Source: a virus
Length of the DNA: 35,993 nucleotides
Direction: 5' to 3' (one strand)
UHGV virus genome: UHGV-0194891
Below are positions 23,155-34,705 of the stretch, one piece after another; position 1 is the stretch's first letter, and each line of letters starts with the position of its first letter. The notes under the pieces are model-generated. The model was not told the DNA's origin and did no database searches. It was given only the letters and a program-made list of their open reading frames with translations. The translations under genes were made by a program, and so were the position numbers.

Positions 23155-23600
23155 GACAGGAACAGAGCTCGCTCTGCCTTGCGGCGATTCGTGAGCCCCG
23201 GCATCACCTTTCCGCCTGATTTATTCCAGCGCAGAAATTCATCTGCCGCGCCTTTTATATCGCCAGCATTCAGCTTTTTCAGCAGTGTAGATGTGGAAAG
23301 AGCACGCGACCCAACGTTGTAAGCGAACGACACCAGTGCGTCGAACTGGCCTTGTGTCAGCTTCACCCTGACAACTTTCAGCACGTCATTCTCATAACCA
23401 ACAAGCCCTGTTTTCAGAAGCCTGTCAGCGGTTTGCTGGTCGATAGTCATACCGCGCTTTACTGGCTTTCCGTCAACCGGATGGGTCCAGCCATAGCCGA
23501 TGGTCCACGGCGCATCTCCCGTTCCGGGGTCGGGGTAAGCAGTCAGCCGACAACCTTCAAATTTTTTTATCAGAGCAATTCCGTCAGGACTGGTTTGCAT
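23151..23600 (-). CDS. Endolysin, T4 / P22 gp19-type lysozyme
   Basis: Start [39 protein letters not shown]... with the catalytic Glu/Asp/Thr context and a C-terminal ...[12 protein letters not shown] as in P22 lysozyme; ATG at 23598-23600 overlaps the holin 3' end. Confidence 0.8.
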
Positions 23601-23916
23601 CGTCAACTCCCGCCTTTTTTGCTGCAAGTTTTTTAATAAGATTGCCGATCGAATCGGTGCCGATGTATCCAATAAAGACGCTGGCTATGTAGGCGAGGTT
23701 GCTGCTCAGGCCGATAAAGTCCAGAAGGTCACGAACGAACCAGGCAATCATCGCGCACATCAGCGCATCAATTAGCGTTTTTGTTACCGCGCCGCCGTTA
23801 TAGCGACCACGCAGATACGCCATGATAAAAGCCAGCATTGCACCAATACCCTGCTCCTTGGCGGCAAGTAGCGCAGCGATGAAATCTTGTTTGTATGGCA
23901 TTTTCATAGGCCTCAC
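23584..23916 (-). CDS. S: Class I holin, lambda S-like, with dual-start motif
   Basis: [42 protein letters not shown]... is near-collinear with lambda S; the N-terminus carries three closely spaced Met codons. Confidence 0.85.
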
Positions 23917-24156
23917 CTCCGATTTTTCGGATGGCGCTGTGTGTGTGTGTTTGAAAAGGGTCAGGCTTCACGGGATGGATTTATCAACAAAGCACGTAGC
24001 GGATGATTCCCGTGAGCCTGAAATGAAAAAGGCCGCCAAGCGGCAGCCAACAGTCGATTCAATACCGGGATATTTATCCACGCCCGGCGCGTGGTTTCCC
24101 TGCTTTCCACAGATAAAGGAAATTGCTAAATTGGTCATTCCACAGACAATTAGGGA

Positions 24157-24573
24157 ATGACCATGGATGTAGGATTACTTATCGCGTCCCTTAAAAACGG
24201 GATCGGCGCGCTTTCTGCTGTGCAAAGTAACGAGGTCCTGCGCGAGCGCATCGCTTTCATTGGAGAGCAGATCGACGTACTTCAAAAAGCCCATGCTGCC
24301 ACCATAGCAGAACTTGCCGAGGCGAAAGCCAAGAACGTAGAACTTGAGAAGGAAATAGCGGCTTATCGGGCAAAGGATGAGTTTGTCGAGCACATGGGTG
24401 CGGCCTTTAGAAAAAATCCCGCGGGTGGGTATATCAGCGCGGTTTATTGCCCCAACTGTCTTAAACAGGTCGGTAGCGGGTTCGATGACTTTCCTTACCA
24501 TTGCGGCTACTGCGGCTTGACTTCAAGATTTGAAGGAAGGGAGATTGATAGCGTAATGAAAACCCTCCCTTAA
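24157..24573 (+). CDS. Hypothetical coiled-coil / zinc-ribbon protein, antisense to the late operon
   Basis: 138-aa ORF (start possibly ATG 24163, which has AGGGA six nt upstream); coiled-coil segment and C-terminal CPNC...(x17)...CGYC pair; followed by hairpins at 24580-24599 and 24621-24644. Confidence 0.5.
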   Translation: MTMDVGLLIASLKNGIGALSAVQSNEVLRERIAFIGEQIDVLQKAHAATIAELAEAKAKNVELEKEIAAYRAKDEFVEHMGAAFRKNPAGGYISAVYCPNCLKQVGSGFDDFPYHCGYCGLTSRFEGREIDSVMKTLP

Positions 24574-24610
24574 TGTTAAGGCGAGGGTAGCGCCTCGCCG
24601 TTACCTCCAG

Positions 24611-24647
24611 AAACGCAAAAGCCCCACGGTGTTATCCGCGGGGCTTT
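24611..24647 (-). terminator. tR'-like intrinsic terminator of the PR' transcript
   Basis: Minus strand gccccgcggauaacaccguggggc followed by UUUUGCGUUU; lies about 25-60 nt downstream of the predicted PR' start. Confidence 0.6.
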
Positions 24648-24670
24648 AAACGAAGGCATTAACCCATCGT

Positions 24671-24706
24671 TGGGTCAAATTTACCCAACTTTATTCAAAA
24701 AGTCAA
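24671..24706 (-). promoter_or_regulatory. Late promoter PR' with qut-like region (lambda-type)
   Basis: Minus strand TTGACT (24706-24701), 17 nt, TAAATT (24683-24678), then TTGACCCAACGATGGGTTAAT, which I recall as near-identical to lambda PR'/qut; immediately downstream of Q. Confidence 0.6.
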
Positions 24707-24748
24707 TATCATGCCGTTAATATGTTGCCATCCGTGGCAATCATGCTG

Positions 24749-25372
24749 CTAACGTGTGACCGCATTCAAAATGTTGTCTGCGATTGACTCTTCCTTGTGG
24801 CATTGCACCACCAGAGCGTCATACAGCGGCTTAACAGTGCGTGACCAGGTTGGTTGGGTAAGGTTGGGTATTAGCATCGTCACAGCGCGATATGCGGCGC
24901 TTGCTGGCATTCTTGAATAGCCGACACCTTTGCATCTTCCGCATTCTTTCTCAACAACTCTCCCCCACAGCTCTGTTTTTGATATATCAACCGCACGGCC
25001 TGTACCGTGGCAATCTCTGCACCTTGCTCCCGGCGTCGCGGCACTACGGCAATAATCCGCATAAGCGAATGTTGCGAGCACTTGCAGTACCTTTGCCTTA
25101 GTATTTCCTTCAAGCTTTGCAACGCCACGGTATTTCCCCGATACCTTGTGTGCAAATTGCATCAGATAGTTGATGGCTTTTTGTTTGTCATTCTGGCTGA
25201 GTTCGTGCTTACCACAGAACGCAGCCATTCCAAATCCGGCTTGTGATTGCGCCATCCCCATAGCAGCCATCACATCAGTACCGGAAAGAGAGTCAGAAGC
25301 CGTAGCCCGTGGTGAGTCGCTCATCATCGGGCTTTTTGGCGAATGAAATTTAGCTACGCTTTCGAGTCTCAT
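24749..25372 (-). CDS. Q: Late antiterminator Q (lambda Q type)
   Basis: 207-aa product MRLESVAKFHSPKSPMMSDSPRATASDSL...CRDCHGTGRAVDISKTELWGRVVEKECGRCKGVGYSRMPASAAYRAV... matches lambda Q as I recall it essentially end to end. Confidence 0.9.
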   Translation of the reverse strand: MRLESVAKFHSPKSPMMSDSPRATASDSLSGTDVMAAMGMAQSQAGFGMAAFCGKHELSQNDKQKAINYLMQFAHKVSGKYRGVAKLEGNTKAKVLQVLATFAYADYCRSAATPGARCRDCHGTGRAVDISKTELWGRVVEKECGRCKGVGYSRMPASAAYRAVTMLIPNLTQPTWSRTVKPLYDALVVQCHKEESIADNILNAVTR

Positions 25373-28857: not shown

Positions 28858-29765
28858 GATCTGCTCCTGTAACTATCCCATGTAAACGCAAGAGTGCACC
28901 CTCCGCCATCATTCATCCTGTCAATAACACGCTCACCAATGAATGCCGAAAGTTCATCTTTGCTCTGATTACTAATCAGGATTGTTGGCTTCATGTATTC
29001 ATATCTGGTGTTGATAATTTCGAACATGATTAGCTTTTCAGCATCACTGCCGAACTGCACGCCAACCTCATCGATTATTAACAAGTCAGGATGCGTAAAT
29101 TGCCTAATGACTTCTTCTTCAGTTCTGGTTGCGGCCTTAGACCATGTTGATTTGTACTCTCTGGCAATTTTCAACGCAGTGGTAAATATCACAGAGCTTT
29201 GATGCTCGATAATGGCGTGCCTAGCGATAGCCAGTGCAAGGTGGTTCTTTCCAGTTCCAGGCTTACCACACATGACCAGTCCGCCACCTTTTTGAAGGCG
29301 TTCAGGCCACTTACTGGCATATGCCTGGCATACCTTAAGAACTCGCTTTGCATCATCGTTAACAGGCTCATAATTCTGAAGAGTGCAATTTTTGAACCTC
29401 TCTGGAATATTGAGAGAATTCAACAAATATTCAATTTTTGATTGTCTTGCTCTTTGTTCTGCCTGCTCACGTTCAATCTCTTTCTTACGAATTTTCTCCT
29501 CAAGGCACTGTGGGCACTCAGATTTACTTGAAGTAATTCTTTTTCCTGAGATGGTCAGATATTTCTCATAGGAAGTATATTTACCGTGTTTCTCGCACTC
29601 TTCCACTGTGCTGGTAACTGACATTCCATCTGATACTGATCCAATTTTGCTAAACTCAAGTTTCTGTTTCAGATCAGAAATGTCATTGATTTTTGAGTCT
29701 ACAAGTTGCCTTTGCAGTGCCAGATTGTAACCATTTGTCGTATTCATATTCACTCCTGCGCCCAT
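28854..29765 (-). CDS. DnaC-like replicative helicase loader
   Basis: 303 aa with Walker A (GKPGTGKNHLALAIA) and Walker B-like (LLIIDEVG) motifs; directly downstream of the O-like gene. Confidence 0.8.
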   Translation of the reverse strand: MGAGVNMNTTNGYNLALQRQLVDSKINDISDLKQKLEFSKIGSVSDGMSVTSTVEECEKHGKYTSYEKYLTISGKRITSSKSECPQCLEEKIRKKEIEREQAEQRARQSKIEYLLNSLNIPERFKNCTLQNYEPVNDDAKRVLKVCQAYASKWPERLQKGGGLVMCGKPGTGKNHLALAIARHAIIEHQSSVIFTTALKIAREYKSTWSKAATRTEEEVIRQFTHPDLLIIDEVGVQFGSDAEKLIMFEIINTRYEYMKPTILISNQSKDELSAFIGERVIDRMNDGGGCTLAFTWDSYRSRS

Positions 29766-32793: not shown

Positions 32794-33722
32794 ATGATAA
32801 ATCAATGTTTAAAAATTGCGATAAACGCATTGATTTCATTCAAAAAGAAGTCGATGCAATGAAGCAAAACAAAACCAGGTCCTTTGCTGACATGCTTCTT
32901 TATCGCTCCATGGATTCTCATCTGAGCGATTTGAAGGCCGAAAAATTAAAGCAAGATAGTCGGCACCCACTTATCGATTTTTTTGAGCTGCGGCTGAAAG
33001 GCTCTGAGGTTGACTTTGGCTCTATTCCTTTAGAGCTGCTTGGGGCTATTTCAACAAATCTTGCAGCGCTAATACAAAGAGCAACACACAAAATTGCCTC
33101 AGGCAAGGACTCAAAAAAAGTTCCCTACGACGTGAAAAGCTCCTTAAACCTCAGGCTGGCTGATTTATCCCCTGGGTCTACAAAATTGGGCGTCACCTTC
33201 TCTACAGGAATAGCAGAATTAGTAGAAACAGTACCCAGCAAGGCTGTAAAAGGCATATTCGATTTGTTGTTAAGCGATGACGACAACAACTTCATGAATC
33301 ACGTCGCTGAAATTGGATACAATTCCACTGTAAGCCTTAAGAGAATCGTAGAGGAATGCGATAAACACAACTTAACATTTGATGCAAGTTGGACCGGTCC
33401 ATTTAGTAATGGCACCAAGGTGGTAACTATTGACTCCAATAAAATTAAGTACTTGGTGAGTAGACTTACATCAACCATTTCATCACCTCCCATTACTGAA
33501 ACGGTTACAGGCGAACTGGTCGTTCTATCCAAATATGGGAAGCTGGAGCTTGATGTTGGTGGTGAACATTTAAAGGCTTCCTATCCGATTGAAATGCTAG
33601 ATTTAATACAAAAAAAACACAAGGTCGGACAGATTGTTTCTCTTTTAGTGGAGACTACTGAGATTCACAATGATCGCATAGGTCTGTACCGTAAAAACCA
33701 TCTTGTTAAATCGGTTCTTTAA
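32790..33722 (+). CDS. Hypothetical 310-aa protein; gene 2 of the cI-adjacent cassette, translationally coupled
   Basis: ATG 32790-32792 overlaps the upstream TGA 32791-32793 (ATGA); AT-rich; no transmembrane segment or motif recognised; followed by a terminator. Confidence 0.65.
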   Translation: MNDKSMFKNCDKRIDFIQKEVDAMKQNKTRSFADMLLYRSMDSHLSDLKAEKLKQDSRHPLIDFFELRLKGSEVDFGSIPLELLGAISTNLAALIQRATHKIASGKDSKKVPYDVKSSLNLRLADLSPGSTKLGVTFSTGIAELVETVPSKAVKGIFDLLLSDDDNNFMNHVAEIGYNSTVSLKRIVEECDKHNLTFDASWTGPFSNGTKVVTIDSNKIKYLVSRLTSTISSPPITETVTGELVVLSKYGKLELDVGGEHLKASYPIEMLDLIQKKHKVGQIVSLLVETTEIHNDRIGLYRKNHLVKSVL

Positions 33723-34321: not shown

Positions 34322-34705
34322 ATGACACGCAGAACTCAGTTCAAAGGCAATTCACGTTCTCGTCGTCGTGAGCGTTTAAAGGCAAAGGCATTAGCTAACG
34401 GCGTACTGGCCCGCGAAGAAGCAATAAGTTCAGAAGTATTACACCGCCCTACTCTAAGCAGATCGCAGATTCAGGCTAAAGGTACTCACGAAACGCCTGA
34501 GCGCATAGAAGACGCTAAGCCAATTAAGTTCATGGCACAGGACGTGATCTGGCAACAGAAAGAATACAGACGCAATCTGGAGCGAGCGGCCATTGTGTAC
34601 GCGAATGAGTTTGGACATAAGCAACCAGAAACTGGTGTATGTCTTCCAAACGTAGCCATTTACGCGGCAGGCTACAGGAAATCAAAACAACTGACAGCGA
34701 GGTAA
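34322..34705 (+). CDS. N: N-like antiterminator (P22 gp24-like)
   Basis: 127 aa; N-terminal arginine-rich motif (TRRTQFKGNSRSRRRERLKAKA) and C-terminal ...VAIYAAGYRKSKQLTAR; first gene of the PL operon downstream of the nutL boxB. Confidence 0.7.
   Translation: MTRRTQFKGNSRSRRRERLKAKALANGVLAREEAISSEVLHRPTLSRSQIQAKGTHETPERIEDAKPIKFMAQDVIWQQKEYRRNLERAAIVYANEFGHKQPETGVCLPNVAIYAAGYRKSKQLTAR

Follow-up and report, generated by a model that had tools for sequence, protein, structure and literature searches.

A conserved zinc-ribbon gene of a lambdoid phage preceded by a cassette with the architecture of the P22/lambda sieB promoter and sas region

We analysed a stretch of 35,993 nucleotides (nt) from the lambdoid phage genome UHGV-0194891 (the whole stretch is referred to as the window) and characterized its plus-strand gene for a 136-amino-acid (aa) coiled-coil/zinc-ribbon protein, which lies between the late antiterminator gene Q and the holin gene, opposite to the late operon. 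Sequence comparisons indicate that this gene is a genuine, conserved and mobile prophage moron and that the cassette of about 100 nt upstream of it matches the sieB promoter and sas region of phages P22 and lambda in architecture. A sieB/sas-type control cassette is thus present here with a different cargo and at a different site, and its general use beyond sieB is the point of interest. We consider it fairly probable that the gene is on in the lysogen via a promoter of the sieB type, and that in lytic growth an antisense RNA derived from the Q-dependent late transcript silences it. An earlier sequence-only reading of this DNA had proposed expression in the lysogen and silencing on induction, which fits well with the architecture of the upstream region. 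The coordinates of all features are collected in Table 1.

The gene belongs to a widespread protein family. A database search returned 66 homologues with 57-95% identity from Escherichia, Salmonella, Klebsiella, Citrobacter, Hafnia, Proteus/Providencia/Morganella, Pantoea and Vibrio. A profile search of 1.8 billion representatives yielded 467 clusters at 50% identity, 216 of them below 1e-10, and nearly all family clusters encode proteins of 125-145 aa. The ratio of nonsynonymous to synonymous substitution rates (dN/dS) against the homologues was 0.07-0.35, indicating purifying selection. The reading frame, whose conservation the sequence-only reading had put forward as a check on its proposal, is therefore conserved. 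Its length had been given as 138 aa. The corresponding open reading frame (ORF) is present, with an in-frame ATG at 24157 (24157-24573), but since all 66 homologues begin at its third codon, the ATG at 24163 is the likely start and 136 aa the likely length. In an alignment of 22 sequences the motifs VLRERI, FRK and CPNC...C..C were invariant, with C98-P-N-C101 and C116/C119 fixed. An AlphaFold2 (AF2) model with a predicted local distance difference test score (pLDDT) of 89.6 shows helices at residues 5-22 and 26-74 followed by a beta-rich C-terminal zinc-ribbon domain, so that the zinc ribbon recognized earlier is borne out by both alignment and model. The protein probably forms an oligomerising helical stalk with a zinc-ribbon head. 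Residues 3-135 match the profile of phrog_1244, an uncharacterised phage protein family (E 1.2e-24).

The surroundings of the gene show that it is inserted into an otherwise minus-strand region. Minus-strand genes tile positions 459-23916. The late operon on this strand runs from Q through PR' and tR' to the holin gene and onward to the genes for endolysin, Rz, head and tail, the last of which reach to about 459. Every plus-strand ORF of at least 110 aa within 459-23916 overlaps a minus-strand gene, and 24157-24573 is the only plus-strand ORF of the late region that does not shadow one; it is indeed the sole sizeable plus-strand gene there, as the sequence-only reading had stated. The block 23904-24687 recurs in phages HK225 and Louie at 98-99% identity and in HK225 is flanked by a different Q and a different holin gene. 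The query was matched by 129 phage records, 126 of which have under 80% of it in common, and among the matches listed the shared part comprises only the end of Q, PR' and tR' (24611-24760). The features by which morons are defined (Juhala/Hendrix definition) are found here: extra DNA that related phages lack at this junction, a promoter by homology and terminator hairpins. Judged from these comparisons, the block is a mobile moron between PR'/tR' and the holin gene, oriented opposite to the late operon, and the antisense placement in the Q-holin gap that had been pointed out earlier marks an independently transcribed insertion. Homologues occupy at least five other sites, namely between tail tube and tape measure genes, in a myovirus baseplate cluster, between Rz and terminase genes, in the PL operon (between cI/N and kil/recT) and in a nin-like region. 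They are nearly always the lone plus-strand gene amid minus-strand neighbours.

When the 130 nt upstream of the homologues were aligned, a unit of ca. 100 nt (24065-24163) proved to be conserved across genera. Read on the plus strand, it consists of interleaved GC helices, a first motif between complementary arms (arm-R1-arm), a TG-extended -10 element and an inverted repeat containing a second motif (R2) and the Shine-Dalgarno sequence. Cassettes of the same part order are located directly upstream of sieB in P22 (NC_002371.2, ca. 29650-29757) and in lambda (NC_001416, ca. 34375-34480), where ACCCCTACAG occurs twice. The P22 RefSeq record annotates the sieB promoter over arm-R1-arm and the -10 element, and the mapped sieB transcript of P22 begins with the first base of the second ACCCCTACAG copy. 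The promoter in the window was located by position-for-position alignment to the annotated P22 promoter and RNA start, which would place the plus-strand RNA start at about 24139 (24137-24142). A sas-like RNA is annotated in neither the P22 nor the lambda RefSeq record, and Rfam holds no sas family. The sequence of P22 sas RNA was listed in 2026 by an RNA sequencing (RNA-seq) study, which detected it in infected cells only (PMC13397905, Table 2), and this sequence is the exact reverse complement of the cassette, extending from codon 2 of sieB across the interleaved helices. In P22, sas from the superinfecting phage pairs with the sieB mRNA, and translation switches from SieB to the inhibitor Esc (PMC7067206, PMC12197685).

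Using an IMG/VR pattern scan for the helix core, at least 120 matches were obtained and filtered to 78 distinct cassettes of this architecture; TAnnnT at the -10 position, present in 78/78, was a selection criterion. Among the matches listed, about 20 unrelated small ORF families stand behind the cassette. The commonest cargo is the 136-aa family with 38 instances, followed by SieB with 15 instances (PF14163, E 9e-23, phrog_1301). Further cargos include a 179-aa double zinc-ribbon protein (phrog_1244), an ECs_2282-like zinc protein, proline-rich peptides of 32-55 aa and others. In one IMG/VR cassette (L185) a helix pair of the window type is combined with a P22-type repeat and a SieB cargo, and we therefore regard window-type and P22-type cassettes as mosaics of one family. 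Our literature search retrieved no relevant paper for the exact cassette strings and none describing the cassette before genes other than sieB. To compare the window with the known cassettes directly, a covariance model was constructed from 10 P22/lambda-type cassettes, none of which carries the repeat motif of the window, and both strands of the 36-kb window were searched. The best match was 24161-24064 on the minus strand (26.1 bits, E ~2e-4, model positions 1-101). The runner-up, 33220-33320 on the plus strand (13 bits, E 0.24), is situated inside a 310-aa plus-strand ORF and is probably noise.

Likeness to the sieB-sas system extends to a gene placed antisense within a lytic operon, here with predicted expression in the lysogen, and to an antisense RNA, likewise predicted here, that covers leader and start codon. 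There are also clear differences. The cargo in the window is a soluble coiled-coil/zinc-ribbon protein unrelated to membrane SieB, the cassette is located in the late operon between Q and holin genes and not in the PL operon, and the repeat motif is TTCCACAGAYAA here and ACCCCTACAG there.

The conserved RNA structure lies on the minus (antisense) strand. A plain MAFFT alignment yielded no consensus with RNAalifold, as indels misalign the hairpins, and the strand evidence was instead obtained by anchored parsing and strand-paired energy tests. In case of the hairpin around R1, the antisense strand was the more stable one in 75 of 78 cassettes (mean -8.4 vs -5.4 kcal/mol, Wilcoxon 2e-13). The stems of the corresponding antisense hairpin (H3') measure 9-11 base pairs (bp) and, across 39 haplotypes, contain 698 Watson-Crick pairs, 82 G.U pairs and 10 mismatches; all 82 G.U pairs become C.A mismatches on the mRNA strand. 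The two interleaved helices follow the same rule: helix S2 alternates between GCCTG/CAGGC and GCCGG/CCGGC, helix S1 is CCTC/GAGG in 2/78, and every non-Watson-Crick pair in S1/S2 is a G.U pair on the minus strand. With antisense-strand loops of 2-4 nt, 2 nt and 7-11 nt (A-rich), their layout fits a classical H-type pseudoknot, and from these lengths it is possible that S1 and S2 form one. The region of R2 and the hairpin formed by the inverted repeat (H4') is more stable on the antisense strand in 63/77 cassettes, with both strands about equal in the window. The antisense RNA of the window folds into H4', H3' and the 3' helices with -34.5 kcal/mol (z = -2.45).

Based on these results the following sequence of events can be proposed. 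In the lysogen, a leader of ca. 24 nt and the 136-aa gene would be transcribed from a weak, sieB-type sigma-70 promoter. An mRNA starting at about 24139 would be free of the 5' arm of the inverted repeat, leaving the ribosome-binding site accessible, and would probably stop at the hairpins at 24575-24647. Transcripts from PR' would end at tR' (24647-24618), so that antisense RNA would be absent. Upon induction, or when a superinfecting copy enters late expression, Q-modified polymerase would pass tR' and cross the gene on the minus strand. The part of the late transcript corresponding to ca. 24167-24064 would then constitute a structured sas-like RNA composed of H4', H3' and the two interleaved 3' helices. 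This RNA would pair with the 5' end, Shine-Dalgarno sequence and AUG of the mRNA and shut off its translation, and head-on transcription may add to silencing. The phage would thereby be spared its own gene product in lytic growth. We infer the plus-strand start site, that this phage makes and processes the antisense RNA, that silencing acts on translation, and what the protein does.

Several observations argue that the antisense RNA would be carved from the operon transcript and would have no promoter of its own. No sigma-70-like minus-strand promoter was seen inside the ORF, and none in the cassette (partly by eye). The cassette is portable before unrelated coding sequences, and in 33 of the 41 informative loci the gene it precedes runs antisense to both flanking ORFs of at least 120 aa. 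Further, P22 sas reads were found only in infected cells. This sets the proposed RNA apart from IS10 RNA-OUT and P22 sar, which have their own promoters. The resemblance to IS10 RNA-OUT/RNA-IN and P22 sar/ant lies in the predicted action, a hairpin loop complementary to the extreme 5' end and ribosome-binding site of the target mRNA and a resulting block of translation.

A number of points weigh against the proposed antisense control. Both the plus-strand start and the minus-strand RNA of this phage are assigned by homology. The covariance test is not fully independent, as the helix pair of L185, which was part of the training set, is near-identical to that of the window, and the calibration of its E-value is rough. 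In P22, sas acts early, from PL, and switches translation to an internal product, Esc. The RNA proposed here would appear late, and a conserved internal start is absent from the ORF; the sole internal methionine, M80, is not conserved in the homologue alignment. The 136-aa family is also found behind a different cassette or second in a two-gene operon. Because of these other upstream arrangements, sas-type control is not obligatory for the family. Finally, no defence family or fold in the libraries scanned matches the protein, whose function is deduced from its context.

If the proposed control is correct, a mechanism from 1993 that was thought to be specific to one P22 gene would become a general design rule, by which prophages keep phage-harmful genes on in the lysogen and carry, in the same 100 nt, the antisense RNA that disarms them once the surrounding lytic operon is active. 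It would explain why such morons are consistently antisense to their host operon. It would also provide a covariance signature for mining candidate exclusion or abortive-infection genes; ca. 20 ORF families were already met with here, of which SieB is the only one with a known function. The RNA itself would be small and structured, with a duplicated loop motif and possibly an H-type pseudoknot. The hypothetical protein would gain a predicted phenotype, self-exclusion upon mutation of the antisense element. A further-reaching idea, which we put forward as a speculation of rather low confidence, is that the sieB promoter and sas form a portable self-immunity cassette on many unrelated lysogen genes of temperate enterobacterial phages and flag hidden anti-phage genes, this zinc-ribbon family included. 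The co-varying R motif would define groups of specificity, and a phage with the matching motif could silence the exclusion gene of a resident prophage in trans, as an RNA-based counter-defence.

Morons of lambdoid phages such as lambda bor and lom or HK97 gp15 are likewise independently transcribed extra genes with their own promoter and terminator. They separate genes that are neighbours in related phages, and are often antisense and active in the prophage (Juhala et al. 2000; PMC3594210). The position of the gene had also suggested a likeness to Shiga toxin (Stx) phages. This likeness holds for the position, the Q-S gap downstream of PR'/tR' and upstream of the holin gene, and for nothing beyond it: Stx genes run in the direction of the late operon and are activated by Q, the gene described here is opposite and would be switched off, and the proteins are unrelated. 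We know of no shared structured promoter/antisense cassette described for classical lambdoid morons.

By analogy with SieB, the protein may tentatively be viewed as a cytoplasmic superinfection-exclusion or abortive-infection factor directed against other phages. We favour such a role because SieB is the only characterized cargo of the cassette and because an antisense switch at lytic growth suits a harmful product. Searches with the protein itself were uninformative in this respect. Scans of Pfam and NCBIfam gave chance-level coiled-coil or zinc-finger matches only, PADLOC 2.0 found no catalogued defence protein (only chance-level Cas12f matches, E 0.05), a sequence profile search of the PDB found nothing and Foldseek against PDB and BFVD gave no significant structural match. 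The 136-aa protein does not match the SieB domain PF14163, and longer homologues carry no informative fused domains. Comparison of the 136-aa family with the 179-aa double zinc-ribbon family by hhalign was insignificant, though both match phrog_1244. The lack of a match among the defence families known to PADLOC 2.0 would also suit a second possibility, which we regard as doubtful, namely that the regulation is as proposed but the protein modulates lysogeny, induction or host physiology, either as an antirepressor partner or as a regulator binding nucleic acids or RNA polymerase. Some homologues adjoin Arc/Mnt-like, Bro-N or ANT/pRha antirepressor genes, and the combination of coiled coil and zinc ribbon loosely recalls CT398 (Chlamydia)/HP0958 (Helicobacter) and DksA/TraR. 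These proteins, however, score no better than dozens of unrelated helical hairpins, share no Pfam or sequence match with the 136-aa protein and differ from its asymmetric hairpin with a short first helix of 18 aa. A modulator is also harder to reconcile with SieB, an abortive-infection protein, as sole characterized cargo, with an antisense switch at lytic growth, which best suits a self-harmful product, and with insertion sites that are classic moron/exclusion-gene sites.

The inverted repeat and the R motifs allow other explanations of the control region. The repeat is perfect with a 12-nt spacer, as had been described, and measures 10 bp instead of the 9 bp given before (TGGTCATTCC at 24132-24141 and GGAATGACCA at 24154-24163). 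In Markov simulations of the 861-nt region, 3% gave a perfect repeat of at least 10 bp. It encloses R2 and the Shine-Dalgarno sequence, its 3' arm reaches the A of the ATG, and it recurs in related cassettes with altered sequence (TCAATC/GATTGA, TGGAT/ATCCA). R1 and R2 are the same 10-12-mer within each cassette and differ between cassettes (TTCCACAGWCAA, TTCCCCAACNNC, TACCCCTACAG, CCCCACCAA). This identity may reflect two loops for the same mRNA 5' end, trans-specificity groups or a protein site. In the last case the repeat together with R1 (over the -35 element) and R2 (at +1) could represent DNA operators for a repressor or activator of the promoter, which we judge unlikely. The (near-)identical motifs are 33 bp apart and bracket the -10 element, both are altered in step from one cassette type to another, as expected of protein sites that co-evolve, and their duplication is not explained by the RNA model. 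On the other hand, the stems vary by compensatory and strand-specific G.U changes, which is an RNA signature. Where a phage has two cassettes (L124, L170, L068-L071), the R motif of one differs from that of the other, which counts against a single phage-specific regulator, and homologues of 88% identity use a class B cassette when others of 66-75% identity use the sas-type, which counts against autoregulation. Control by the encoded protein was rejected on the ground that cassette type and protein sequence do not co-vary, and a LexA box because neither cassette type has the right spacing (by eye). The sequence-only reading had named an operator as one role of the repeat, and we obtained no positive support for it, although operators and the antisense model are not mutually exclusive.

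Its other suggestion, a hairpin in the mRNA that sequesters the ribosome-binding site as a cis block relieved by a signal, appears improbable to us. The 3' arm (24154-24163) does cover the Shine-Dalgarno sequence up to the A of the ATG, and the plus-strand fold is stable (-14.8 kcal/mol). With a start at about 24139 by alignment to P22, however, most of the 5' arm would be outside the mRNA, as is the equivalent arm in P22, which is also upstream of the start site. The region moreover folds better on the antisense strand in the majority of cassettes (63/77, see above), and the G.U patterns place the hairpins there. We also consider it very improbable that 24026-24103 on the minus strand encodes an IsrK-like Hfq-binding small RNA with its own terminator: the Rfam isrK match (RF01394) covers the full model length and a true minus-strand terminator is present at 24048-24031, but the 21.2 bits of the match are far under the gathering score of 50 and derive from the terminator and one GC stem, 8 other cassette loci gave no isrK match, there is no minus-strand promoter, and the terminator is outside the conserved cassette elsewhere. 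Weak Rfam matches to isrK, isrJ and isrD were accordingly rejected and the likeness to IsrK, a Gifsy-1 small RNA, was judged to be due to chance.

Table 1. Features of the moron and its surroundings in the window of UHGV-0194891
Feature	Position	Strand	Remarks
Holin gene	23584-23916	-	first late gene downstream of the module
Second intrinsic terminator	24022-24048	-	GGCTGCCGCTTGGCGGCC then TTTTTCATTT; between cassette and holin gene
Predicted sas-like cis-antisense RNA element	24064-24167	-	complementary to mRNA 5' end, Shine-Dalgarno sequence and start codon; ends approximate
Interleaved helices S1/S2, pseudoknot topology	24065-24094	-	A/U-rich 8-nt linker
Helix S2	24065-24069 + 24083-24087		CCGGG/CCCGG
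Helix S1	24078-24082 + 24090-24094		CCAC(G)/(C)GTGG
Hairpin H3'	24095-24122	-	arms TTTCCCT/AAGGAAA (plus-strand reading); one G.U pair on minus strand
Predicted sieB-type promoter	24104-24132	+	-35 TTTCCA 24104-24109; extended -10 TG 24124-24125; -10 TAAATT 24127-24132
Motif R1	24105-24116	+	TTCCACAGATAA; overlaps -35; on minus strand, upper stem and loop of H3'
Hairpin H4' (inverted repeat)	24132-24163	-	10-bp stem, 12-nt loop CUAAUUGUCUGU
Motif R2	24138-24149	+	TTCCACAGACAA; predicted mRNA 5' end; on minus strand, mostly H4' loop
Coding sequence, 136-aa coiled-coil/zinc-ribbon protein (phrog_1244)	24163-24573	+	
GC-rich hairpin directly 3' of stop codon	24575-24604	+	U-tract on neither strand
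Two-way terminator hairpin	24618-24647	both	minus strand: then TTTTGCGTTT = tR'; plus strand: then TTTAAAC
Late promoter PR'	24678-24706	-	TTGACT, 17 nt, TAAATT; qut-like site
Late antiterminator gene Q, lambda type	24749-25372	-	would drive antisense transcription across the module

The remaining features concern the borders of the module. In HK544, HK620 and Emek, the regions homologous to PR' bear promoter and qut site annotations. The two hairpins that had been noticed downstream of the gene are both real (24575-24604 and 24618-24647). The second is annotated as a rho-independent terminator in HK225 and is common to lambda-Q phages. Since its T-run is located on the minus strand, we assign it as tR' of the late promoter; its plus-strand side probably ends the mRNA of the ORF. 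An equivalent of the first, GC-rich hairpin is kept after the stop codon in most homologues, with altered sequence. It could stabilise the 3' end of the mRNA and at the same time spare the host operon termination on the other strand. Upstream of the gene, the intrinsic terminator at 24022-24048 is part of the block common to HK225 and Louie and is found outside the conserved cassette elsewhere. It may keep antisense transcripts that are not antiterminated off the lysis genes in the lysogen. The hairpin with a T-rich run that had been described at 24078-24106 is real as regards CCACG/CGTGG (24078-24094), but a proper T-run is absent. We rejected it as a terminator for this reason and because it co-varies within the interleaved helices. 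A 112-aa plus-strand ORF at 23822-24160 is probably spurious, since it covers the entire non-coding cassette and the start of the holin gene; part of it is annotated in phage Louie as CDS0060, a 75-aa hypothetical protein.

Some genomic contexts of the homologues deviate from the arrangement in the window. In some Salmonella prophages (L080, L081) the ORF is second in a two-gene unit, after a gene for a 151-aa Arc-domain protein. In some contexts (L080, L081 and the Vibrio loci L083, L084) it is divergent from a Bro-N gene or beside a pRha/ANT antirepressor gene. Such neighbours may point to a link with immI-like regions or to mere clustering of morons. Further, a second portable upstream cassette occurs with the 136-aa family. 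It has the form CTGATC-N3/4-ATCAGGAT, 17-20 nt, CCAGGTTAGGCTG and was seen at L036, L037, L046, L062, L066 and L225-L245; the window lacks it. It is preceded by a terminator for the opposite strand and also drives a 134-aa ORF and a 56-aa family. The latter resembles a family of 59-61 aa found behind the sas-type cassette, and because such similar families stand behind different cassettes, cassettes and cargos appear to be shuffled.

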